Assembly: GCA_013166835.1 (NCBI GenBank)
Contig: JABLTI010000134.1
Location: forward strand, 1 to 10,699
From: Promethearchaeati archaeon
GTDB lineage: Archaea; Asgardarchaeota; Heimdallarchaeia; JABLTI01
Direction of reading: 5' to 3'
DNA length: 10,699 bases
Shown here: positions 1-10,698 of the stretch, in pieces
Numbering within the stretch: the stretch's first letter is position 1
Layout of the letters: each line of letters starts with the position of its first letter
Notes under the pieces: model-generated
The model's input: the letters and a program-made list of their open reading frames with translations, nothing else
What the model was told of the DNA's origin: nothing
Databases searched by the model: none
Program-made: the position numbers and the translations under genes

Positions 1-1230
1 TTTTGGTGTTCTTTCTTTTGTAATACTCTTATACCAACGGTCTACACCATTTATGAAACCACCCCAAATAACCTTTCTACCTTTATTTTTATCATCTTGA
101 ATAGGAGCATCTGGTGGTATAATTAATTCTATTTTCTCGCCATTTGAACCATAGAAAATAATATCTCGTATCTTTTGTGGTAAATCCTTGAATGGTATAT
201 CCCAACTGAAGTTGTAATGCTTAGCTAAACTATACATCCTCACACCTCTTATATTATTGAAACGTTTGAAGGTTTTTTGACTCAGATTAAAGATTCTAGT
301 ATCTAAGGCACCTTCTCGAATTGTCTTATTTTCATCTTCGACTAATAAGAAAGGTGATGCTCTAAAATGAGTTCCTAACCCAGAACATGTTACACATGCA
401 CTTTCAAGATCATTCGGTGTAAAGAACCAGGGTAATAAATCACCACAAGTTGTATGATGTTCTGGACAAGTAAATTCATAGAATTTGTCTAAATCGACAT
501 CAACCTCATCAGGATTTAGAATTTCAATTATGATGAGCTTTTGTCCGATGTCGAAAGCATTTTCTATTGCTTCAAAAATCTGCTTGTATATATCTCCTTT
601 TACGGTAAATTTGTCAATTATTGCTTCTATTTTATATTCTTCATCCTCTTCTAATTCTATCTCTTGACCAATGTCATAGATTCCATTGTTTATTCTAAAT
701 CTTCTATATCCATGATTTCTAATCTGATCAAGTAAATATTGATACTCTTCACCATATACCTTGAAAAGCACTGCTCGAACTTCTACAATAGTTCCTTCAG
801 GTAAAGTGTTTATTCTATCTGCTAATTGTCCAGATGTTTTAATGTCGATTTTTCTATCACAAAGGGGACAAAATGCCTCACTTGCTACTGAAAAGAGAAG
901 TCGAATGTAACTTCCTATATCCGTCAAACTACCTATTGTTGATCGTGGATTGCTTATTCCTCGTTTTTGATCTATACTCACTATGGGTGAAAGCCCTTTG
1001 ATGAATTGAACATCAGGCCGTTTCATTTGTGGAACTCTTGAACGTGCATAGGCAGAAAGTGTCTCAAGAAACCGTCTTTGTCCTTCAGCATATAACACAT
1101 CAAAAGCAAGTGAAGATTTACCCGAACCTGAAACTCCAGTTATTACAGTCATCTCATCTCGAGGTATTTTGACTGTTACATTTTTCAGATTATTCTGTTT
1201 TGCACCTATAATTTCAATAAAATTTTTCAT
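1..1230 (-). CDS. uvrA: Excinuclease ABC subunit A (UvrA)-family ATPase, N-terminal 410 codons; truncated by the window edge
   Basis: Not in the ORF track because it has no stop in the window. Manual translation from ATG 1230 is open to base 1: [64 protein letters not shown]...[11 protein letters not shown]...NPRSTIG. It has the UvrA N-terminal signature, Walker [10 protein letters not shown], and Zn motifs CPLC (121-124), CPEH (255-258) and CVTCSGLG (279-286). The start overlaps the upstream stop as ATGA (1227-1230). Confidence 0.95.
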
Positions 1231-2180
1231 GTCATATCATCTCCAATATAATAAAACCCTATTTCGTTGACTTCATCATGACTACGTAAAGTTAAACGAA
1301 CGGGACACGGAACTCTATCACAGATTCCCTGTTCTACTAACCAATCCCCTAAAGCTACTCCAGCAATATTCCACCATGTTGTCTGTAATCTGTCATTGAG
1401 ATGCCTAGCAATATCAGAAACACTTCGGAAAGCGGCCTCATTCTTGAGATAATCTATTACTGGGCCAAAAATCTCTATAGTATTATCTTCCAAGTATTTT
1501 CTAGTAGTGGAAAGTATTTTGAGCAATTTATCTTTGCTTGTTTTTTCTAAAACCACTTGTGTATAGATTTGATCTAGTAATTCTGGCTCGAATTTCATCG
1601 CTTGTTCTGCTGCTTCTCTTCCAGGAATTTCATTATTCAACATACAGATAATAGAAGCTAAATTATCAAGTAATCTGTAAATGAAAAGGTAACTTTGAAC
1701 GATATCATCCTCAATATGGATATATTTCTCAGCTTTTTCAAGATCACCAATAACCATACAAACGATACGAAGGATTTCTAACTCGAAATCTCGTCTACCG
1801 ACTTGTTTCATGCTTTCTATAAATTCATCTAAAGTTGGATCCTCTGAGAATAGAACTTTACTTGTAATCAAAACATGATGTGCTCCGGAACCTTGTAATG
1901 CTCTTTGCTGGTATCTAATGAAACTATTTCTAGTCATCACAGTAACCTGGAGTTTGATATCATCATCCATTAACCAGAAATCTCTCCTCGGTGTTTTCTG
2001 ATCCTTAGTTATAAGAACTAAATCTATGTCCGATTTCTCCCAGATTGTTCCTTTTACTAAACTTCCAAATAATAGTGCTGCAGTAAAGGTTTGATCTTTC
2101 TTAATTTCTTCAATGAAAGCATTGAGTGCTTCTTCAAACTTTTTTCTTATTTTCTTGTCTTCTGGCATTTCTTTCACCAA
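1227..2180 (-). CDS. Pol-beta-superfamily nucleotidyltransferase-domain protein (NTase + helical bundle + probable C-terminal winged helix; YgxA-like architecture)
   Basis: The N-terminal motif [10 protein letters not shown]...SDIDLVLI is the hG[GS]...DxD signature. A helical middle region (DLEKAEKY...LLDNLASI) resembles a HEPN/KNTase-C substrate bundle, and the C-terminal SVSDIARHL...DWLVEQGI looks like a wHTH. The start is uncertain (TTG 2180, GTG 2177 or ATG 2168). Confidence 0.75.
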
Positions 2181-2190
2181 CCAAATAACT

Positions 2191-3054
2191 TTACCTCAAA
2201 TCCTTAGGAATACTATCTTCAACTACTGGAATGTAAATATCAAGAATGAAACCCTCTCCAGAGTGGCTTGGAACTATGACTTTTTCAAGGCCACAACGTC
2301 CTGCAAACTTTATCTTGTGTTTCTTTATCCACTCAAGAATCTTCTTCCACGCTTCAGTTATATCTCGAGCAGGATCTTCAACATTGCATCGAGTAACTAC
2401 ATTGAATGATTCTGGAACATCCTTAACTTCAACTTCATCTGATTTAAAATCAGGATTTACTACTAACCAAAACTCATAACCATATTCCTTTTTACCCGGA
2501 GATGGATTTGGATTATCAAATCCGTAAATAGGATTCTTTTCAAGATCATCAAAATAGCCTTTTGGTTCTGCCCATTCTCGAAGCTTTGCCCAAGCTTCAT
2601 TTTCAGGTGATTCACTGATAGCTTGAAAGCTAACAACCCGCATAGGCTGTAATCGTATAAATTGAACTTCCAATTCATCGGGTTTTCTTACGGAATACAT
2701 TCTTTGAATGTGATCGGCTTTTCTTTTTGCTTCCATTTTCTTCTTTACTTGTGATTTTATGTAGGCCTCTTTTATTGCAAAGAAAAGCACTTTTCCATCT
2801 TCACTTAATTTATACTTCCCTCTACCAGTATTAACTAGTATACCATAACTGACTAGCTTCTCTAAGTGATGTGCTAATGCTGTTTTACTAAGTTTTACTA
2901 CTTCTTTCAGTCCACTGAAATCATTTGGACCTTCCAATAAAGATTCAATTAATTGTAATCTACTTTTATTAGCTATCGCACTTAGAACTTCTGCCAACTC
3001 ATCAAGTGATATTTTTGTTGTTTCAATATCGATGTCATCAAACGAAGTCATCAT
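2191..3054 (-). CDS. ArsR-family wHTH regulator fused to a C-terminal GyrI-like (AraC effector-binding) domain
   Basis: The N-terminus LSAIANKSRLQLIESL...LSKTALAHHLEKLVSYGIL...GKYKLS is an ArsR wHTH. The C-terminus VQFIRLQPMRVV...AWAKLREWA...IYGFDNPNP...YGYEFW...AWKKILEWIK...GLE...LDIYIPV follows the GyrI-like/SbmC pattern. A GAGGA Shine-Dalgarno-like motif lies at 3066-3062, 7 nt before ATG 3054. Confidence 0.88.
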   Translation of the reverse strand: MMTSFDDIDIETTKISLDELAEVLSAIANKSRLQLIESLLEGPNDFSGLKEVVKLSKTALAHHLEKLVSYGILVNTGRGKYKLSEDGKVLFFAIKEAYIKSQVKKKMEAKRKADHIQRMYSVRKPDELEVQFIRLQPMRVVSFQAISESPENEAWAKLREWAEPKGYFDDLEKNPIYGFDNPNPSPGKKEYGYEFWLVVNPDFKSDEVEVKDVPESFNVVTRCNVEDPARDITEAWKKILEWIKKHKIKFAGRCGLEKVIVPSHSGEGFILDIYIPVVEDSIPKDLR

Positions 3055-3075
3055 TTTTCATTCCTCTGTTATTTC

Positions 3076-3123
3076 TATTCAAGCTGAACATTATTAAATG
3101 TTTTGTTGAATATTAGTACTAAT
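3076..3123. promoter_or_regulatory. Candidate operator(s) in the divergent intergenic region, probably for the ArsR-GyrI regulator
   Basis: Imperfect inverted repeat TATTCAA-gctg-AACATT-atta-AATGTT-ttg-TTGAATA (3076-3112) abuts the perfect palindrome ATTAGTACTAAT (3112-3123), just upstream of the ArsR start. The function is inferred. Confidence 0.4.
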
Positions 3124-3154
3124 TTTACTGAACAGTTTTTTAGTTGTTTTTCAC

Positions 3155-3176
3155 TTTCTATATTAGAAACTTTATA
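3155..3176 (+). promoter_or_regulatory. Putative archaeal BRE/TATA promoter for the peroxiredoxin-like gene
   Basis: GAAAC-TTTATA (3166-3176) lies about 33 nt before ATG 3209 and is overlapped by the 6-3-6 palindrome TTTCTA-tat-TAGAAA (3155-3169). Confidence 0.45.
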
Positions 3177-3208
3177 CAAGAAGGAAACTATTAGAGAAAT
3201 GATGGACA

Positions 3209-3736
3209 ATGAGACTACAAGATGGAGAAAAGGCGATTAATTTCACAGTAACTGATCTTTCAGGTAAGAAGATTTCACTTGAGAAATTTAAGAATAAGAA
3301 GATCTTACTTTCATTCTACAGATATGCATCATGTCCCTTATGTAATCTGAGAATTTCACAATTAATTCAACAATACGATGATATGAAGAAGAAAGGGCTA
3401 GTGATTATTGCGTTCTTTCAATCACCAAAGGAAAGTATGCTTGAATACGTTGGAAAGCAAGATGTACCTTTTCCACTAATACCTGACCCAGAAAGAGAAA
3501 TCTATAGATTATATCGCATTGAGAAATCTTGGTTCAAATATGTCATCGGCGGGATTTCTAGAAAAATGTTCAAAGCACTAAGAAAAGGCTTTAAGATAAA
3601 AGGTCAGGAAGGACAGCAAAATCTTGTTCCAGCAGATTTCTTAATAGAAAATATGGTTATCAAGAAGGCTTATTATGGGAAAACTATTGCTGACCACATC
3701 TCATTTAAGGAAATTAATCAATTTCTTGAAAAGTAG
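3209..3736 (+). CDS. AhpC/TSA (redoxin) family peroxiredoxin-like thioredoxin-fold protein
   Basis: GEKAINFTVTDLSGKKISL, LLSFYRYASCPLCNLR (CxxC), FPLIPDPEREIYRLY and PADFLI are typical of PRX-like redoxins. Confidence 0.88.
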   Translation: MRLQDGEKAINFTVTDLSGKKISLEKFKNKKILLSFYRYASCPLCNLRISQLIQQYDDMKKKGLVIIAFFQSPKESMLEYVGKQDVPFPLIPDPEREIYRLYRIEKSWFKYVIGGISRKMFKALRKGFKIKGQEGQQNLVPADFLIENMVIKKAYYGKTIADHISFKEINQFLEK

Positions 3737-3839
3737 TTTTCAAAATAATATCGCTGACGGTTTTCTTAGGTTCTAATGAACCATTCTTTTATAAAACTGG
3801 AGTAGTTGTAAAGAAGACACATTATTGAGAAGATTTAGA

Positions 3840-4136
3840 ATGACAGAAACAGAGACGTTTACATATAATCCCGTTGATGGTACTGATACTTGTAAAGTCT
3901 CATTTAATTTTGAGCTAAAAAAGGAAGAAGGAAAGATCATAATAAAGCAACTCACTGTTGATGGAGAAAAGGGTTGCATCGGACACAATAAAACAATAGA
4001 GCTATTAGTAAGGGGTAGAATCATTCAAGATCTTCCAATTGAGGAATTGAAAGATGCAGGTTGTAAGAGAGCATCTTCTTGTTCTCAAGAGCTTGCTAAA
4101 GCATTAGAGTTATTACTTAAATCTAGCAATAAATAA
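3840..4136 (+). CDS. Stand-alone TSCPD-domain / TIGR03905-like 4-Cys small protein
   Basis: The pattern TYNP..C...GCIGHNKTIELLVRG...LKDAGCKRASSCSQELAKAL parallels the family pattern Y.P.G.C...GGC.GN...I..LV.G...L.GI.C....TSCPDQLA.AL, recalled from memory. ATG 3840 is preferred over the TTG 3825 call. TTTTATAAAA at 3787-3796 is a TATA-like element. Confidence 0.72.
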   Translation: MTETETFTYNPVDGTDTCKVSFNFELKKEEGKIIIKQLTVDGEKGCIGHNKTIELLVRGRIIQDLPIEELKDAGCKRASSCSQELAKALELLLKSSNK

Positions 4137-4140
4137 TTCA

Positions 4141-4150
4141 TTTTTTTTCT
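4141..4150 (+). terminator. T-tract, putative archaeal intrinsic terminator
   Basis: A T8 run starts 5 nt after the stop codon at 4136 and lies immediately before the next promoter. Confidence 0.45.
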
Positions 4151-4155
4151 AAATT

Positions 4156-4186
4156 GGGAAAAATTTTTAACCGACCAGTCGGTTAA
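4156..4186 (+). promoter_or_regulatory. BRE/TATA promoter overlapped by a 20-bp palindromic TetR operator
   Basis: GGGAAAAA (BRE-like, 4156-4163) and TTTTTAA (TATA-like, 4164-4170) overlap TTAACCGAC-CA-GTCGGTTAA (4167-4186, a 9-2-9 inverted repeat) that ends 9 nt before the TetR ATG. Confidence 0.8.
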
Positions 4187-4195
4187 TTATGTACA

Positions 4196-4831
4196 ATGAA
4201 ATCATCAAATAAACGTCAGCAAAAAAGTGGGAAAACAAAAGGAATAATTATTGATGCATCGAAGAAGCTCTTTTTTGCTCATGGATTCTCTGATGTTAGT
4301 ACAGAGCAAATTGCTAAGGAAGCAGGTATATCAAAAGGCGGTATTTTTCATCATTTTTCAACCAAAGAGGAATTAGGTTTAGCTGCTTTAAGATCAACAT
4401 TAGATGATTTCCAACATCTACTCCCGATTATCGAAGAATCACAAGATCTCAGAGCAGTCATGAAGATGGTTGTTAGTGAGACTATGTCTTTCGGTCGAGA
4501 GAATCCAGGTTTCATTAAAATGCTTCTGTGGTTTTTACTTAGAATTGATGACAAATCAGATAGCAAACAATTTTATCTTTTGATGAAAGAAACATTTCTT
4601 GAATCTCTTTTACCTTATGCTCAAATTCTGGAAACATTATTTACACGTCTTGGACAGACACAGCCAAGAGAGAAAGCATTGCTTCTTATGGGTCTCCTAG
4701 ATGGAGTTGTTATTTATGCTACTTATGTAGATAAACTTTCCAAGTTTGAACCAGAGCTTGCGGATTATTTTGATGATTTCGATAATTTAGCAGATATAGT
4801 AATGGAGTTATTTTTTCCAAAAAAGGAATAA
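4196..4831 (+). CDS. TetR/AcrR family transcriptional regulator
   Basis: IIDASKKLFFAHGFSDVSTEQIAKEAGISKGGIFHHFSTKEEL is a canonical TetR N-terminal HTH. Confidence 0.95.
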   Translation: MKSSNKRQQKSGKTKGIIIDASKKLFFAHGFSDVSTEQIAKEAGISKGGIFHHFSTKEELGLAALRSTLDDFQHLLPIIEESQDLRAVMKMVVSETMSFGRENPGFIKMLLWFLLRIDDKSDSKQFYLLMKETFLESLLPYAQILETLFTRLGQTQPREKALLLMGLLDGVVIYATYVDKLSKFEPELADYFDDFDNLADIVMELFFPKKE

Positions 4832-4837
4832 GAAAAA

Positions 4838-5575
4838 ATGAATGAAGAAATAATGGTATCAACTCGAAATCTAAAACGCATTTTTAAATTCGGAGAAACA
4901 GAGGTTTTTGCACTTGATGGTGTGAACCTGTCTGTTCGAAAAGGTGAATTTGTAGTTGTCCTTGGTCCCTCGGGAGCTGGAAAAACCACTCTCTTGAATA
5001 TGATTGGTGGAATAGATCGTCCAACAGAGGGAGAAGTTATTGTAGATGGTAGTAAAATCACTGAATATTCCATAGATGAATTGAATAGTTATAGACGAAA
5101 TGATGTTGGTTGGATATTTCAGTTCTTTAACATCGTTGCAAGTCTACGAGCATGGGAAAACGTTGGATTAGCCTTGGAATTCCAAGGTCAAACCTCAAAA
5201 TCTGAAATCAAGGAACGAGCATTTGAATTACTCAAACAAGTAGGATTAGAAGGAAAGGAAGAACGGTTTCCTAGTCAACTATCCGGTGGAGAACAACAAA
5301 GAGTGGCTATTGCACGTGCTCTAGTTAAGAAACCAAAAATTGTTGTTGCTGATGAACCTACAGGAAATCTTGATTTTGTTACTGGTCAGAGTATTGCAGA
5401 ATTAATGAGAGATTTGAACCTGCAAGAGGAAATTACATTCATTGTTGTTTCTCATGATTTAAACATCACACAATATTCAGATAGAGTATTCCATCTTCGA
5501 ATGGGTAAAATTGAGCAAATTGAAGAACAGCCTAAGGATAATCAGAGTAAGTTAGTTGGTGAAGAAATAAATTGA
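4838..5575 (+). CDS. ABC transporter ATP-binding protein, LolD/MacB/FtsE family
   Basis: Walker [10 protein letters not shown]-loop IFQFFN, signature [15 protein letters not shown], Walker B/D-loop [11 protein letters not shown] and H-loop VSHD are all present. Confidence 0.96.
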
Positions 5576-7996
5576 AAATTATGACGAAGAAAATCTTTAG
5601 AGAGATTCGGACGAGTAAATTTCGATCTTTTTCTATAGTTATTCTTGTAGCTTTCACCGTTGCATTTCTTGGTGGAATGCGAGCCAGCTACCCTATGATA
5701 TTAGAAACCTATAATCTTAATAAAGAGACGTATAATGTAGCAGATGGCCGATTTACTTTTTTTCAACCCATTCAGCAAAATAATCTTTCAGTAATAAGTA
5801 CGAATAGTACCTTTCTGACAGAAGCTAATATTGATCAGATTGATGGACGTGTTATTTTCTACTCTGATATAACACTTGATGGTGAAAAATTCCCAGCAAT
5901 CATTATTGGAACTGATTATCCAAACAAAGTAAATCAATTAGTAATTGAAGAATCCGCGAGTGATATAGAGGATGTAGATGAAATCCTAAATAGTAATACT
6001 AGTTGTCTAGTTGAAACTCATTTCGCTGGAAGAGCCATATCTTTCGTTGGACAAGACGTTCAGATGAATGATACGATTTCTATTAATTTTGCTGGTTTTC
6101 CCGTTGATTTTGAGGTAAAAGGAATAGCTCAGGACACAGATTTCCTTTATGTTGTAGATGAAAGTTCATTGATGCCACTTATGGGCGAACTAGCAGTAAT
6201 CTGGATTAACTTGGAAGTAGTTCAACAATATTTGTTTAGTGGTGATCCGCTAATTAATCAAATACTCTTTACTGTAGAGGAGAGATTTGATAAAGAGATG
6301 ACCTTAGCAGCTGCAGATATATTATCATACGTTTTTACTAGCAATAATATTGATGCTAATTCCTTGAAATTTGAAATTCATGATGAAACTGCTGATTATA
6401 AGATGTTTACTAGTGATGCCGGTGCTCTTGACAGCATGGGAACAATCTTTGGAATCATTGGTATGATTGTTTGTGCTACTATTATTCTTAACACCCTATC
6501 AAAACTTGTAAATTCTCAAAGAAAAAACATTGGTTTGTTCTTTGCAATGGGATCAAGAAGGCGAACTATACTCACGCATTATATTCTAGTGACATTGATT
6601 TTGGCAATATTTGGTGTATTAATAGGTATACCACTTGGATATGGTATTGCGTATGGTATGGTAAAAATAGTCTCAAGAATGTATGGAACACATGAGTTTG
6701 CATTTTATCTACCTCCTAATGAGTTCTTAATTGGAGGTTCAGTTACTTTTGGCATTTGCCTGATAGCATCTATAATCAGTGCATGGCCTATAACCACTGT
6801 AACACCTAGGGAAGCTATGACTGCTACATTTACACGCATAAAGACCAAAGGAAAATCCGTTTCAGAGAAATTACTTGGTTGGTTTCCAATATTCAAACCC
6901 ATTCATATGGCAGTTCCTCTTCGTGAAATATTTATGAAGAAGAAAAAAACAATAATAACAATTTTTGCTCTTACAACATCAATGGTATTCTTAGTTGACT
7001 CATTAGCTATGGAATATAACATGTATGATATAATGAGGAGTAATTTTACAGAGTTTAATACTTATGATGTACAAATACATCTTGAGACACCTGAATCCAT
7101 AGAAAAAATCCTTTCTTTTATATTCAAAAATAACGCATGATGGTGAGTTTGCCAGCTGGGCACAAATAGAGTGTTACCAAGAAAATTCTACGTTACGAAA
7201 TTATAATATAATTAAAGGAATTGCTGAAGATAAAGGTGATTTGACTTCTAAAAAAGTATTACTTGGTAATGCTATTGCAGGAAAATACGATATCGAATTA
7301 TTCGATAATATTTCAATTGGTATCTTAGGTAATTATACAGTTGAAGTTACTGGTTTGGTTGGTGAACTAGTAGATTTCTCAGTTTTTTGGACTTATGAAT
7401 CATTCCAGCAAGGCAACATCACAGATTACTTTGGATTACCAAAAGGATGGGTAAATGGTATTGTTCTCTCAGTAGAAGATAATGCTAACCTAACAGCTCT
7501 TAGAGCTGTTTTCGATGATGCTTTCAGTATAAATCAATGGACAGAGTCAGATGCAGCTCTAAGATCAATTAGAGCCTTGATGGAAGCAATGATGAGTGTA
7601 ATGATCTTATTTCTTGTAATAGGTATCGCAATTGGAGTGATATTTAGTTTTCAATCTATGAATATGGCTTTTGTTGATCGTCAACAGGATTTTATTGCCT
7701 TTAAAGCAATGGGAACAAAAATGAAGTTTATTCGAAGAATGATTTTCTGGGAGAACGCTATACTAAGTATTTTCGGTCTTATCCTTACTGTACCATTTGG
7801 CTACTTATTCTATCGGCTTAGTTTGGATTATATGTTGGAGGATAAGTTCTTTGTTCCAACCTCCATACCTTGGTTTACATGGCCCATAGTATTACTCTTA
7901 TCTCTTTTCGCAATATGGTTAGCTACTGCTAGACTTGTAAGAAGAATAAGAAAATTTGATCTCGCTGATGAATTAAGACAGACAGGTGCAACTTAA
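5572..7996 (+). pseudogene. FtsX/MacB-type double-repeat ABC permease interrupted by a frameshift (ORFs 5572-7140 and 7241-7996 are one gene); real lesion or assembly artefact
   Basis: The first ORF has TM1, a large ectodomain, an FtsX domain (SQRKNIGLFFAMGSRR) and the start of the second repeat, then stops at TGA 7138-7140. The +1 frame is open from 7103 (..LYSKITHDGEFASWAQIECYQENSTLRNYNIIKG..) into the second ORF, which carries the second FtsX domain (DRQQDFIAFKAMGTK). The joined product would be about 807 aa. TTG 5572 overlaps the ATPase stop (TTGA). Confidence 0.8.
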
Positions 7997-8071
7997 GCTT
8001 CTGCTGTTCTTTTTCTAATTTTCCATAAAATTCATAATCTATTTATTCAATGGATTATAGGAGGTTATCTA

Positions 8072-8518
8072 TTGGAACAAGATCCTATTAAAAAAGCACG
8101 AGAGATGTTTCTTGACATTGATAATTGTGCTCAAGCAGTTTTTAGAACAATCCTTGAGGAAAAAGAACTCTATTTTGAGCAAGCACCAATTGCTGCGGCT
8201 GGTTTTGGTGGAGGAATTAGTAGAAGAGGTGAAATGTGTGGTTCTTTGACTGGGGCAATTATGGCGATTGGTATACTTCAAAATCAAAAATACCCAGAAC
8301 CAGTTGAACATAGAAAATATACCTATGAATCAGTAGGTGAATTAATTGATAAATTCAATGCAATTCATGGATCTCCGATTTGTAATGATTTAGTAGGTTT
8401 TGATGTAAGAGATCCAGAAGCGAGAAAGAAAGGAAACGACGAAGGAGTTTTCAAAAACATTTGTCCGAAATTTGTTGAAGATGCTGTTAGAATTGTTCTT
8501 GAAATGTTTCCTGATTAA
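8072..8518 (+). CDS. C_GCAxxG_C_C family putative redox-active protein
   Basis: NCAQAV...GFGGGISRRGEMCGSLTGAIMAIG...ICNDL...IC matches the family. A strong SD-like AGGAGGT at 8059-8065 precedes TTG 8072. Confidence 0.9.
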   Translation: MEQDPIKKAREMFLDIDNCAQAVFRTILEEKELYFEQAPIAAAGFGGGISRRGEMCGSLTGAIMAIGILQNQKYPEPVEHRKYTYESVGELIDKFNAIHGSPICNDLVGFDVRDPEARKKGNDEGVFKNICPKFVEDAVRIVLEMFPD

Positions 8519-8620
8519 CATACGCTCTTTATTTTTGGTAAATCTTGATTAGCAAGGATTTAAAAATTCGTATACGTAGTACAAATCGAAATAGTTCAAT
8601 TATTTGGTGGAAGGGACTTA

Positions 8621-8833
8621 ATGGCTCAATATACTTTGCAAAGTGAATTGGCAATAGCAGTCTTAGTAGTTGTTTGGAATGTTGTTTTGCTCTATTTGGG
8701 AATCATGAATATTATTTTGGATCCATTGAGTGTTTGGGGATATATGTTCTTTTTAATGGGAATTTTCGTTGACTTCTTCATTCTTAGTTGTAGTGTAAGA
8801 TTTCATCGACACAGTTATTCTAGGGTTCCTTAG
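8621..8833 (+). CDS. Small hypothetical membrane protein (2 predicted TM helices)
   Basis: An ATG-started 70-aa ORF fills the intergenic space. It has two hydrophobic stretches (LAIAVLVVVWNVVLLYLGIMNIIL; VWGYMFFLMGIFVDFFIL) and a basic tail. A TATA-like TTTAAAAA lies at about 8558-8566. Confidence 0.6.
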   Translation: MAQYTLQSELAIAVLVVVWNVVLLYLGIMNIILDPLSVWGYMFFLMGIFVDFFILSCSVRFHRHSYSRVP

Positions 8834-8856
8834 AGTAACAGTAGATTTCTAGGATA

Positions 8857-10698
8857 CTAGGAATTGCTTTTCATTTTTCTTTTCTTACTAACGAATATAA
8901 TTATGGGAAAGAAAAATACAAGCTGCCAAATATTGAAAGTCATCTTCGGTGTTGGTTCATTCGGATTATTTATTTCTATTGTGAAATCACCGACTCCCTC
9001 ATATCCACAAATTTCCAAAATAAAGGTAATAGAACTTGTGCTTGTATGATTATATATCATTGATAAAATTTCACCAAAACCTTCCGCAGGCATAAAGAAA
9101 AGTATTCTCCAATCCTCATCATATATGGTTAGTTGATAATTAGCAGATTCAGTATTAGTTAAAGAAATTGTGTTATTTCCATAAGGAATATCTATTTGGA
9201 AATAATGATTCAAATACTGTTTAAAGTGTTCTTGTTCATCGCCATTTATTGATCCACCTGAAGACGTAAATGGAGAATTACAAAGGAGATTAATCGCATC
9301 ATATTCTTTTACTACTAAATCAAAATTTGATGTTAAAGCTTTGCTGGAAACCATTATAAGATAGAAACCAGTTTCAAGAAGAAATCTACAGCATTCAGCA
9401 GTTGCATCTTCAGGATTTATTAAGTAACTCCCACCTATGAATTCATGAACGCCATACATATCGAATTCAAAAACTTTGATATCAACTTCGCCCATTGTAA
9501 TTGAACAATAGAATTCGTAGAAAGATTTCTCCCAAATATTAATTCTATAAATTTGTACAGAGTTCTGTTGGATAGAGCAATCTTCCTTAATATCTTCTAA
9601 ACTGAGCATTAGCGGTTCCATATTAGATGTAGTAAGACTGTTTTCGTAATAGTAGGTTAGGAATTCATCCCACAAAGTATCTACTTGCCAATCCATTCCA
9701 GTACAAAAACTCAGCCTATTTGTGTAATCAGTGAAGAATTCCTCAGAGGTAACATCAAAAGGCATGTACAAAGTAAGACCGTTTGCACTACCAAGATAGC
9801 CCGGATGTTGCCAGTTAAACACTACTGCTTCACCAAGAAATTCCAATAATTCTTCAGCAGCAAGATTAAGAGATGGATAATCCAAAAAACTGATTATATT
9901 ATCAACGAATGAGATGAAATCAATCCAAAAATCATCATAGAAATCATAGGTAATTTCTCTACAAAAAGAAAAAATATCATCGATATTATTTCCTTCCAGA
10001 GCAGCAATTAATTCAGTAATAAACGAATTAATTATTTCTGGAATGTCTATGAATTGTGTTTGATTAATAACTGACAAGCAAGTCATGTATGTGTATTGAT
10101 AATGGTCTGAATAGGCATCAACCATTAGTTCACAAAGTGAACTTGCATTAATACTAGGATCAGATTTTAGGCCCTCGATAATTAGCCTGTAGGGATAACC
10201 ATTAGTACCATCTTCTGAAGCAATAAAATACTTGCAAAGATTCCTCAGTTCCCATGCTACTTCAGCTGTAATCATATTACATGCATCCATTGAAATTATG
10301 TCAATTTCCTCTGAAGAAGAAGCAAGGGCATTTGCTATTGCATTTTGTACATCATTAGCTATAAAGTGAGACATACTTGTCTCATCATCAATAACCCCAT
10401 AAGCTGCGTGACCATGATTCCATAAATCAAGAATATAATTCTCAGCTGGAAAATTTGTGAAGCTATAATTTATGAAGTTTATTAGAGTAATTGGATTAGC
10501 CATATCCACTTCTCCCAAATCCACCATAAGTTGAGAGTCAATTGTCGTTGCTGATATATCATCTGTGATGTTGTATATTCTACTTCCATTCCAGTTACCA
10601 TGGGTATTATCATAACCAGGGATTCGGTCAAGTAATACAACAATGCTAATGTTTTCATCAGAACCACCTGCTTCTTCTAACCACTCAAAATCTCTTAT
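8857..10698 (-). CDS. Clostripain-family (peptidase C11) cysteine protease with C-terminal beta-rich domains and a membrane anchor; 5' end lies outside the window
   Basis: The catalytic His motif LDLWNHGHA, Cys motif IISMDACNM..AEVAWEL and ASE motif are present. The frame is open upstream of the called Met to the window edge (IRDFEWLEEAGGSDENISIVVLLDRIPGYD...GEVDMANP), which is typical C11 N-terminal sequence. The C-terminus is a hydrophobic helix followed by KKRK. Confidence 0.9.
   Translation of the reverse strand: MRDFEWLEEAGGSDENISIVVLLDRIPGYDNTHGNWNGSRIYNITDDISATTIDSQLMVDLGEVDMANPITLINFINYSFTNFPAENYILDLWNHGHAAYGVIDDETSMSHFIANDVQNAIANALASSSEEIDIISMDACNMITAEVAWELRNLCKYFIASEDGTNGYPYRLIIEGLKSDPSINASSLCELMVDAYSDHYQYTYMTCLSVINQTQFIDIPEIINSFITELIAALEGNNIDDIFSFCREITYDFYDDFWIDFISFVDNIISFLDYPSLNLAAEELLEFLGEAVVFNWQHPGYLGSANGLTLYMPFDVTSEEFFTDYTNRLSFCTGMDWQVDTLWDEFLTYYYENSLTTSNMEPLMLSLEDIKEDCSIQQNSVQIYRINIWEKSFYEFYCSITMGEVDIKVFEFDMYGVHEFIGGSYLINPEDATAECCRFLLETGFYLIMVSSKALTSNFDLVVKEYDAINLLCNSPFTSSGGSINGDEQEHFKQYLNHYFQIDIPYGNNTISLTNTESANYQLTIYDEDWRILFFMPAEGFGEILSMIYNHTSTSSITFILEICGYEGVGDFTIEINNPNEPTPKMTFNIWQLVFFFPIIIFVSKKRKMKSNS

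Follow-up and report, generated by a model that had tools for sequence, protein, structure and literature searches.

Decades of work on UvrA have dealt with it as the partner of UvrB. The known extra UvrA proteins, Ecm16, DrrC and UvrA2 of class II, have lost the domain on which UvrB docks and work on their own. The gene pair described here brings in a third kind of extra UvrA, which is full length, widespread and tied by gene order to an enzyme with the fold of the antibiotic nucleotidyltransferases (NTases). It lies at the left end of a 10,699-bp stretch of DNA, called the window throughout, which is an entire contig (C70) of an Asgard archaeal metagenome-assembled genome (MAG) of 260 contigs, with a completeness of 84.75% and a contamination of 6.79%. 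We found that the NTase gene and this uvrA gene form a conserved, co-inherited two-gene module. Full-text searches of the literature returned no description of an NTase-UvrA pair, and the ABC-ATPase survey of Krishnan et al. 2020 might mention it.

The UvrA of this pair (the module UvrA) shares with class I UvrAs (9gxk, 2r6f/3uwx, 3pih and 3zqj) the two ABC sites, the UvrB-binding domain, the insertion domain and the Zn modules, and it aligned end to end with 9gxk at 971 bits, as against 570 and 472 bits for the class II structures 2vf7 and 7sh1. It differs from class I proteins in belonging to a separate clade, in scoring about 250-400 bits lower with TIGR00630 than the housekeeping copies of the same genomes, in having a clade-specific surface on the UvrB-binding domain and in being linked to an NTase gene instead of uvrB. 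Like Ecm16, DrrC and the UvrA2 of D. radiodurans (7sh1, 2vf7), it is an extra paralog with a retained ATPase, and by analogy with them it could plausibly deal with a special class of DNA-bound insults; whereas Ecm16 acts alone, the module UvrA has a dedicated partner. In PMC9328131, class IIa UvrAs (Ecm16, DrrC) are defined by the loss of the UvrB-binding domain and of the first zinc finger. The module UvrA has both, and because the UvrB-binding domain is retained it cannot be assigned to class IIa as delimited there; the likeness to DrrC and Ecm16, put forward in an earlier reading of the window from its letters alone (the original prediction), had to be given up.

The NTase-uvrA pair and its distribution

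Three co-oriented open reading frames (ORFs) were found on the minus strand where the original prediction had placed them, encoding an ArsR-GyrI regulator, the NTase and the module UvrA, in that order. The stop codon of the NTase gene overlaps the start codon of uvrA in an ATGA at 1227-1230, likewise as proposed, and the translational coupling of both genes by this overlap was counted in favour of a module. The 10-nt gap between the regulator and NTase genes (2181-2190) holds if the TTG at 2180 is the start codon, but it becomes 22 nt if translation begins at the ATG at 2168. The latter is probably the start, because most NTase homologues are 310-313 aa long and a GGTGA precedes that ATG. The uvrA gene is not short: its ORF runs off the end of the contig, and the remaining 551 residues, at the C-terminus of the protein, are encoded on another contig (C144:3399-5054), in a part that covers positions 395-924 of the 924 of TIGR00630 with 778 bits. 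Comparison with continuous orthologues (L022, L041 and L042) showed that 6 nt are missing between both contigs. As noted in the original prediction, there is no uvrB or uvrC in the window by Pfam. Neither gene lies beyond its left edge, where uvrA is completed and then followed by genes of the clostripain family and for a GDSL lipase.

The adjacency of NTase and uvrA, which the original prediction had left to a neighbourhood search, proved to be conserved. In 60 genomes of the same class, 17 loci had a single-copy NTase homologue (26-94% identity), and every one of them had uvrA immediately downstream on the same strand. A wide profile scan, with one genome per species, yielded at least 541 stretches encoding an NTase relative; in the best 80 of them, uvrA started not more than 300 nt downstream on the same strand in 64 and 324-4968 nt downstream in eight, and two left no room for uvrA on the contig. 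The hosts of these 80 loci were Asgard archaea and members of the Bacillota, Armatimonadota, Abditibacteriota, Chloroflexota, Acidobacteriota, Planctomycetota, Gemmatimonadota and Myxococcota, the Bacillota being represented by about 35 Paenibacillus together with Cohnella, Alicyclobacillus, Oceanirhabdus and a Clostridiales MAG. When five of the six genomes lacking the adjacency were searched, four held a UvrA of the module clade (see below) elsewhere, which shows that the NTase and this UvrA co-occur even when unlinked. Within the Asgard phylum the distribution was patchy, with the NTase family in 18 of 201 genomes belonging to four family codes only.

The tree of the NTases (30 rows) mirrored the deep split of the UvrA tree, with 17 rows on one side and 13 on the other (SH-aLRT 99), and in both trees the Myxococcota and Planctomycetaceae rows were nested within an Acidobacteriota clade. 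Such congruence fits the inheritance and transfer of the pair as a unit. No compositional sign of recent transfer was found within the window, where the GC content was 0.32-0.36 throughout.

Some genomes have more than one module. The chromosome of Oceanirhabdus sp. W0125-5 carries two NTase-uvrA pairs (L109 and L126) besides its housekeeping uvrA, and in the first of them NTase and uvrA share a frame with a stop codon between them. A second module was found in our own genome (C80, 2955-8518, minus strand), in which a module-clade uvrA (943 aa), an alpha/beta hydrolase gene (278 aa) and a tandem double NTase gene (626 aa) are tightly packed in this order, which differs from that in the window; a tandem double NTase also occurs in another Asgard family code (f11). 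An apparent NTase-UvrA fusion of 1314 aa in a further locus (L108) was rejected, the uvrA frame being open upstream in high-GC DNA and the NTase lying in another frame.

The UvrA paralog and its clade

The part of UvrA encoded in the window contains the Walker A motif of the first nucleotide-binding domain (NBD-I), the UvrB-binding domain (residues 132-237; PF17760, 74.5 bits, cut-off 23.3) and the insertion, or DNA-binding, domain (residues 295-406; PF17755, 55.2 bits, cut-off 23.2). In an alignment of 36 module UvrAs, the Walker A, Walker B, signature and H-loop residues of both ATPase sites were invariant (K38 and K665, D533/E534 and D877/E878, S508-E511 and S850-E853, H566 and H910), as were the cysteines of the Zn modules, including C121, where the consensus is C-P-x-C together with a C-P-x-H-H motif. 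The ATPase motifs can also be read in the translations of the window and of C144. Complete module orthologues scored 1107-1147 bits with TIGR00630, exceeding the class I cut-off of 729.8 bits. Judging from these motifs and scores, the module UvrA is a full-length, ATPase-competent damage scanner of the class I type.

A profile search of the contigs detected at least five uvrA-like genes, an unusually rich UvrA repertoire for one genome. The best-scoring one, on C94, reached 1271 bits with TIGR00630, the copy on C80 reached 1094 bits, and C30 encodes a double UvrA of 1677 aa. A uvrC gene is located on C106. The uvrA of C94 is directly followed by a second uvrA-like gene (3416-9159 for both, minus strand), the latter being split into ORFs of 544 and 310 aa, with a TGA within the match. 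No uvrB was found in this MAG, which is 84.75% complete (best score, 32 bits). A single uvrB was present in 54 of the 60 relatives, including nine of the ten of the same genus, so that its absence here is attributed to the incomplete assembly and a true loss of the gene was rejected.

Scores with TIGR00630 were compared within one Asgard chromosome and four complete genomes of bacteria: housekeeping UvrAs reached 1360-1512 bits, and the NTase-linked copies, with full coverage of the model, 1107-1147 bits. A tree of 48 UvrAs was built with 34 of the 60 full-length module copies (Paenibacillus being thinned), our own copies from C80 and C94, the second Oceanirhabdus copy, five housekeeping proteins and six short copies that lack the UvrB-binding domain; it contained no duplicates, fragments or double UvrAs. 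The 34 module UvrAs, the C80 protein and the second Oceanirhabdus copy formed one clade (SH-aLRT 100), and the housekeeping copies and the C94 protein formed a separate one (SH-aLRT 98), with the short paralogs branching outside both. The same split was seen after nine further rows were added. Asgard module UvrAs sat with Bacillota copies in the tree. These trees place the module UvrA in a distinct paralog clade, neither housekeeping nor class II; the phylogeny called for by the original prediction set it apart from the housekeeping proteins, and it is not the only uvrA of its genome. None of the three outcomes that the original prediction named as refuting was observed.

The NTase and its predicted complex with UvrA

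Pol-beta NTases are recognised by the motif hG[GS]x9-13Dh[DE]h. Pfam assigned the NTase ORF (1227-2180, with the upstream TTG included) to the Polbeta/NTP_transf_2 group, and an alignment of 66 sequences revealed as invariant D25, G35, S36, W43, S46, D47, D49, R80, K145, K148, R184, A190, L277, S296 and E302. The catalytic G-S...D-x-D signature (G35-S36 and D47-x-D49) is therefore intact, from which the NTase is expected to be an enzyme. A confident AlphaFold model made from a 66-sequence alignment (pLDDT 93.2, pTM 0.87) showed a three-part protein, in which a Pol-beta-type NTase domain is combined with a helical bundle, where a K-A-[EH]-K is invariant, and with a winged helix at the C-terminus composed of helices at 235-279 and a hairpin at 283-307.

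The best Foldseek match over the full length was an uncharacterised protein of Exiguobacterium sibiricum (3c18, of YgxA-like architecture), which shares the three-part layout (E 7e-12), is 10-12% identical and was the only one recovered by a sequence profile search (E 2.8e-7). YgxA-like clusters were also the nearest named Atlas clusters; the YgxA-like substrate-binding domain of Pfam stayed below its cut-off and hit only paralogs (24.7 and 20.8 bits, cut-off 27). Next came ANT(4')-Ia, or KNTase (TM 0.58 by query and 0.70 by target; 6nmk, 1kny), and then ANT(4')-IIb, and the matches to HalB, LinB and AadA were weak. The NTase has in common with ANT(4')-Ia (1kny, 6un8) and ANT(4')-IIb (4ebk) the fold of an NTase domain plus a helical bundle, the G-S...D-x-D signature and a conserved Lys-rich helix. 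It differs from them in an identity of just 14-18%, in the additional winged helix and in being encoded with a UvrA; with the NCBIfam models for ANT(4'), ANT(3'') and ANT(9) it scored 17.6-21.2 bits, the cut-offs being 193-545. Two other assignments were tried and rejected: the MntA antitoxin of MNT-HEPN type VII systems (29.8 bits, cut-off 60, and no HEPN gene in the window) and HalB of the Hailong system (21.1 bits, cut-off 190; fold TM 0.34).

A complex of the two proteins was modelled using residues 1-640 of the UvrA of an intact orthologue (L042, 94-96% identical to the window protein) and its NTase. The ipSAE was 0.58, 0.68 and 0.62 in three runs (median 0.62), and 0.00 in the best of three controls. 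Of 157 solved complexes, 116 attain the mark that we applied, as do 2 of 215 mismatched pairs; with custom alignments these counts are a rough guide. The runs shared at least 59% of their contacts, with a pLDDT of the partner of at least 82. To our knowledge there is no solved complex of a UvrA with an NTase, so it seems unlikely that the pass reflects a known structure. The NTase is predicted to dock on the UvrB-binding domain (UvrA residues 148-224) and on the insertion domain (321-331 and 380-413) through its residues 79-127, 245-262 and 284-311, and the conserved R80, D110, G124 and D127 of the NTase lie within this footprint. Several UvrA residues on this surface separate module from housekeeping copies: R171 was found in 36 of 36 module UvrAs, R176 in 31 and K216 in 30, and none of the three in the six housekeeping proteins. 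Conversely, position 148 is R or K in all six housekeeping UvrAs and mostly E, A, I or T in module copies, and position 217 is R in five of the six and mostly Q or A in module copies, suggesting that the contacts with UvrB have changed. The predicted complex agrees with the alternative already contemplated in the original prediction, a non-canonical UvrA pathway with the NTase-winged-helix protein as partner.

Regulation, possible roles and flanking genes

The regulator encoded by the first gene passed the cut-offs for an ArsR-type DNA-binding domain and for Cass2 and GyrI-like domains (Table 1), and stayed below that of NF033788 (35.9 bits, cut-off 55). As in sensors of the BmrR/Rob/SbmC type, a GyrI-like/Cass2 domain is fused to a DNA-binding domain and heads the operon that it presumably controls; the DNA-binding domain is of the MerR or AraC type in those sensors, but of the ArsR type and archaeal here. 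The original prediction had included this sensor in the module. Since an ArsR-GyrI gene upstream of the NTase was seen only in loci of the same genus (L022, L024, L025, L041, L043 and L044, some of which may come from the same genomes), we do not count it in the conserved unit.

Upstream of the regulator gene, nearly every column of a 60-nt block (Table 1) was invariant in five of five same-genus loci, whereas the intergenic DNA on either side of the block and the proteins (57-96% identity) have diverged between these loci. At 3113-3122 the block holds a perfect palindrome, TTAGTACTAA, whose flanking arms are imperfect. It also has the repeat TGTTCAG twice and, at 3091-3098, about 40 nt before the start codon, a TATA-like TTTAATAA, and we infer that it comprises a promoter and an operator. 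The intergenic region with this block (3055-3208) is common to the regulator gene and to a divergent AhpC/TSA gene, which may be co-regulated with the operon because it shares the operator-bearing region.

A different signal was found in the Bacillota. A GAAC-N4-GTTC box, which we take to be the Bacillus LexA site consensus, occurred in 10 of 36 loci in the 150 nt before the NTase gene, when no more than one mismatch was allowed. These upstream regions, 5,400 nt in all, gave 10 hits and the remaining 448,139 nt gave 193, a 4.3-fold difference in frequency; exact boxes numbered two upstream and eight elsewhere. In seven or eight of the loci bearing it, the box lay between or against putative -35 and -10 hexamers. 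We consider this a moderate hint that the pair could be under SOS (LexA) control in Paenibacillus, given that the loci are from related species.

Positions 1-3300 of the window were matched at 99% identity or more by DNA contigs of another, independent study, which extended past its first base. In a run from an RNA library (X20), a kind of library that can contain DNA, contigs matched only at 1-238 and 2015-2217, with about 94-97% identity, and the second of them entered the regulator gene by fewer than 31 letters and bridged no genes.

Taken together, we lean towards a damage- or genotoxin-induced UvrA-NTase complex in which the NTase sits on a remodelled UvrB-docking surface, and consider it somewhat better than an even guess. 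The gene order, the conservation of the pair, the clade, the motifs and the fold were all found here, and the complex and its interface are predictions of the model. The direction of recruitment, the substrate of the NTase and the induction of the operon would be as follows. The UvrA paralog would recognise a distorted or adduct-bearing DNA site and recruit the NTase there, either ahead of UvrB or in its place. The NTase would then transfer a nucleotidyl group to a target at this site; candidates are a small molecule bound to the DNA, an end or lesion of the DNA, and the UvrA protein. Expression of the module would respond to genotoxic stress, through a ligand-sensing ArsR-GyrI repressor acting on the conserved palindromic operator in the archaeal genus and through LexA in many Paenibacillus. 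More tentatively, and with more doubt than belief, the pair could represent an undescribed DNA-surveillance pathway in which a dedicated UvrA clade swapped UvrB for a KNTase-like NTase that docks where UvrB once bound. Recognition of a lesion or adduct would then lead to nucleotidyl transfer and not to excision, and the pair would move as a unit among Asgard archaea and bacteria of at least eight phyla and be placed in regulons of LexA or of xenobiotic sensors.

If the complex is real, an ABC ATPase would link its recognition of damage to some chemistry that is not excision and that might tag or inactivate a DNA-bound molecule or mark DNA or protein. The pair is found in culturable strains of Paenibacillus, Alicyclobacillus and Oceanirhabdus, for example Paenibacillus psychroresistens ML311-T8, Paenibacillus sp. 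H1-7, Alicyclobacillus fodiniaquatilis and Oceanirhabdus sp. W0125-5, and is hence directly testable. It could also be a marker for genome mining; uvrA-like genes are reported to serve already as such for clusters of intercalator genes (PMC10413001).

Several points weigh against the proposed complex and its role. The module UvrA keeps the UvrB-binding domain, so that lesions may still be handed to UvrB. The co-fold is a model, made with monomers, a partial orthologous UvrA and separate alignments that we built, and the trees were quick LG+G4 searches without bootstraps in which long branches were flagged; their congruence in part just follows taxonomy. The adjacency counts cover the best 80 of the stretches with an NTase relative, and among these 80, six had no uvrA in a flank of 1.4-6 kb and the eight with a non-adjacent uvrA included six with the gene 1.4-5 kb off, so that tight coupling is not obligatory. 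One of the five unlinked genomes searched lacked a module-clade UvrA. No fused NTase-UvrA was found at E<=0.001 among 4029 candidates, in a weak search that also missed our own 626-aa double NTase. LexA-like boxes were present in just 10 of the 36 loci, in related species, and the transcription data consist of two short RNA-library contigs that are 94-97% alike to the window.

The neighbourhoods bear on a first alternative. A Pfam scan of 130 ORFs from 34 loci (130 of 157 picked, the more distant or shorter ones being dropped) revealed no family recurring across lineages and thus no conserved third gene. Single loci have a stand-alone GyrI-like/Cass2 protein directly upstream of one pair (Oceanirhabdus, L109), a MerR-TipAS downstream (L049), MerR and glyoxalase neighbours (L092), two glyoxalase/bleomycin-resistance proteins and an APH upstream (L084), or an AlkZ-like neighbour of an NTase that has no uvrA beside it (L087), and GNATs were present around several loci; these are hints of scattered xenobiotic or genotoxin themes. 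Such neighbours would suit the resistance mechanism of the original prediction, by which the UvrA dislodges a DNA-binding drug in the way of Ecm16 and DrrC, the NTase inactivates it by O-nucleotidylylation like ANT and Lnu enzymes, and the GyrI domain senses it. The closest characterised folds of the NTase (ANT(4')-Ia, ANT(4')-IIb and LinB), the alpha/beta hydrolase inside the C80 module and the soil and sediment origin of the carriers point the same way. We nevertheless judge it unlikely. The helical domain has basic residues as its invariant ones (K145, K148 and R184), unlike the aminoglycoside pocket of ANT(4'), which is acidic, and the ANT models of NCBIfam gave 17-21 bits against cut-offs of 193-545. 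A pair so uniform in at least eight phyla favours a common substrate rather than one antibiotic, the LexA-like boxes point to DNA damage, none of the neighbours is conserved across lineages, and the UvrA is not of class IIa, keeping the UvrB-binding domain whose loss marks that class (PMC9328131).

The retention of that domain speaks for a second alternative, in which the NTase would be a regulator or loader of the paralog and not an enzyme working at the lesion. It would cap or AMPylate the UvrB-binding domain until damage is sensed, with the paralog still feeding excision by UvrB and UvrC as a specialised entry point. The modelled footprint of the NTase covers this domain, uvrC is present in the genome, and most relatives have their single uvrB (54 of 60, and 9 of 10 in the same genus). 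Yet the systematic differences from housekeeping UvrAs at interface positions 148 and 217 suggest changed UvrB contacts, and the invariant catalytic motif argues that the NTase is not a mere scaffold; this explanation seems to us rather improbable, a little more so than drug resistance.

An anti-phage or anti-plasmid pair, in which a UvrA-like ATPase would sense foreign DNA and the NTase would signal or modify in the manner of Hailong HalB or CBASS, is very improbable. It could draw on the PADLOC model mad3, which matched the C-terminal half of UvrA (E 1.5e-74), on a weak match of the NTase N-terminus to PDC-S09 (E 1.3e-8), on HalB being among the fold matches and on the patchy Asgard distribution (18 of 201 genomes). 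However, the UvrA matches class I repair UvrAs over its whole length (971 bits to 9gxk), the HalB match is poor (TM 0.34; NCBIfam 21 bits, cut-off 190), no other MADS gene or effector was found in the window or in the 34 neighbourhoods scanned, and the loci lie among housekeeping genes and not in defence islands. A MADS system, which comprises a set of mad genes with a methyltransferase among them, was rejected, since the mad3 and mad8 ABC-ATPase models alone hit UvrA and the window has no other mad gene. Finally, that an ordinary housekeeping uvrA, as the presence of every class I domain and a score above the TIGR00630 cut-off might suggest, stands beside an unrelated NTase gene by chance or local synteny can practically be discounted, because the adjacency recurs over two domains of life and at least eight phyla, the protein falls in a separate clade while the C94 uvrA scores better (1271 bits), the UvrA and NTase trees are congruent and the co-fold passes; chance adjacency is excluded for practical purposes.

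Table 1. Location, strand and basis of the features of the module and its surroundings in the window
Feature	Position	Strand	Basis
UvrA paralog, N-terminal 410 residues	1-1230	-	Pfam; NCBIfam TIGR00630 positions 2-391, 320 bits
NTase, 313 aa (317 aa with TTG 2180)	1227-2168	-	PF18765, 44 bits; AF2 (AlphaFold) model; Foldseek
ArsR-GyrI/Cass2 regulator, 287 aa, first gene of the operon	2191-3054	-	PF01022 (ArsR HTH_5) 30.1 bits (cut-off 22); PF14526 (Cass2) 41.7 bits (cut-off 27); PF06445 (GyrI-like) 32.1 bits (cut-off 26)
Putative promoter and operator block	3075-3134	-	Nearly all columns invariant in five same-genus loci
AhpC/TSA peroxiredoxin gene, divergent from the regulator gene	3209-3736	+	Pfam

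A few loci have other genes beside the NTase. In an Acidobacteria MAG (L087, 2085-5847, plus strand) there is no uvrA, and the NTase gene is followed by one gene for a protein with ankyrin repeats and another for an AlkZ-like DNA glycosylase (238 bits). Three more loci (L102, L097 and L054) have ankyrin-repeat genes as neighbours of the NTase gene.

On the plus strand at 4196-7996, the rest of the window encodes a TetR regulator, an ABC ATPase and then an FtsX-type permease, in what may be an efflux operon. The permease is spread over two ORFs (5572-7140 and 7241-7996) that are in different frames and separated by 100 nt, and which may be two genes or the pieces of one broken, MacB-like permease gene. 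A putative redox-active protein of the C_GCAxxG_C_C family is encoded at 8072-8518 (plus strand), between the permease genes and a clostripain-family (Peptidase_C11) gene at 8857-10698 (minus strand). The latter has a paralog on C144 (1241-3376, minus strand), both with hydrophobic C-terminal tails, and when both contigs are joined these two paralogs flank the operon. In one of the same-genus loci (L043), a clostripain-family gene likewise comes directly after uvrA.

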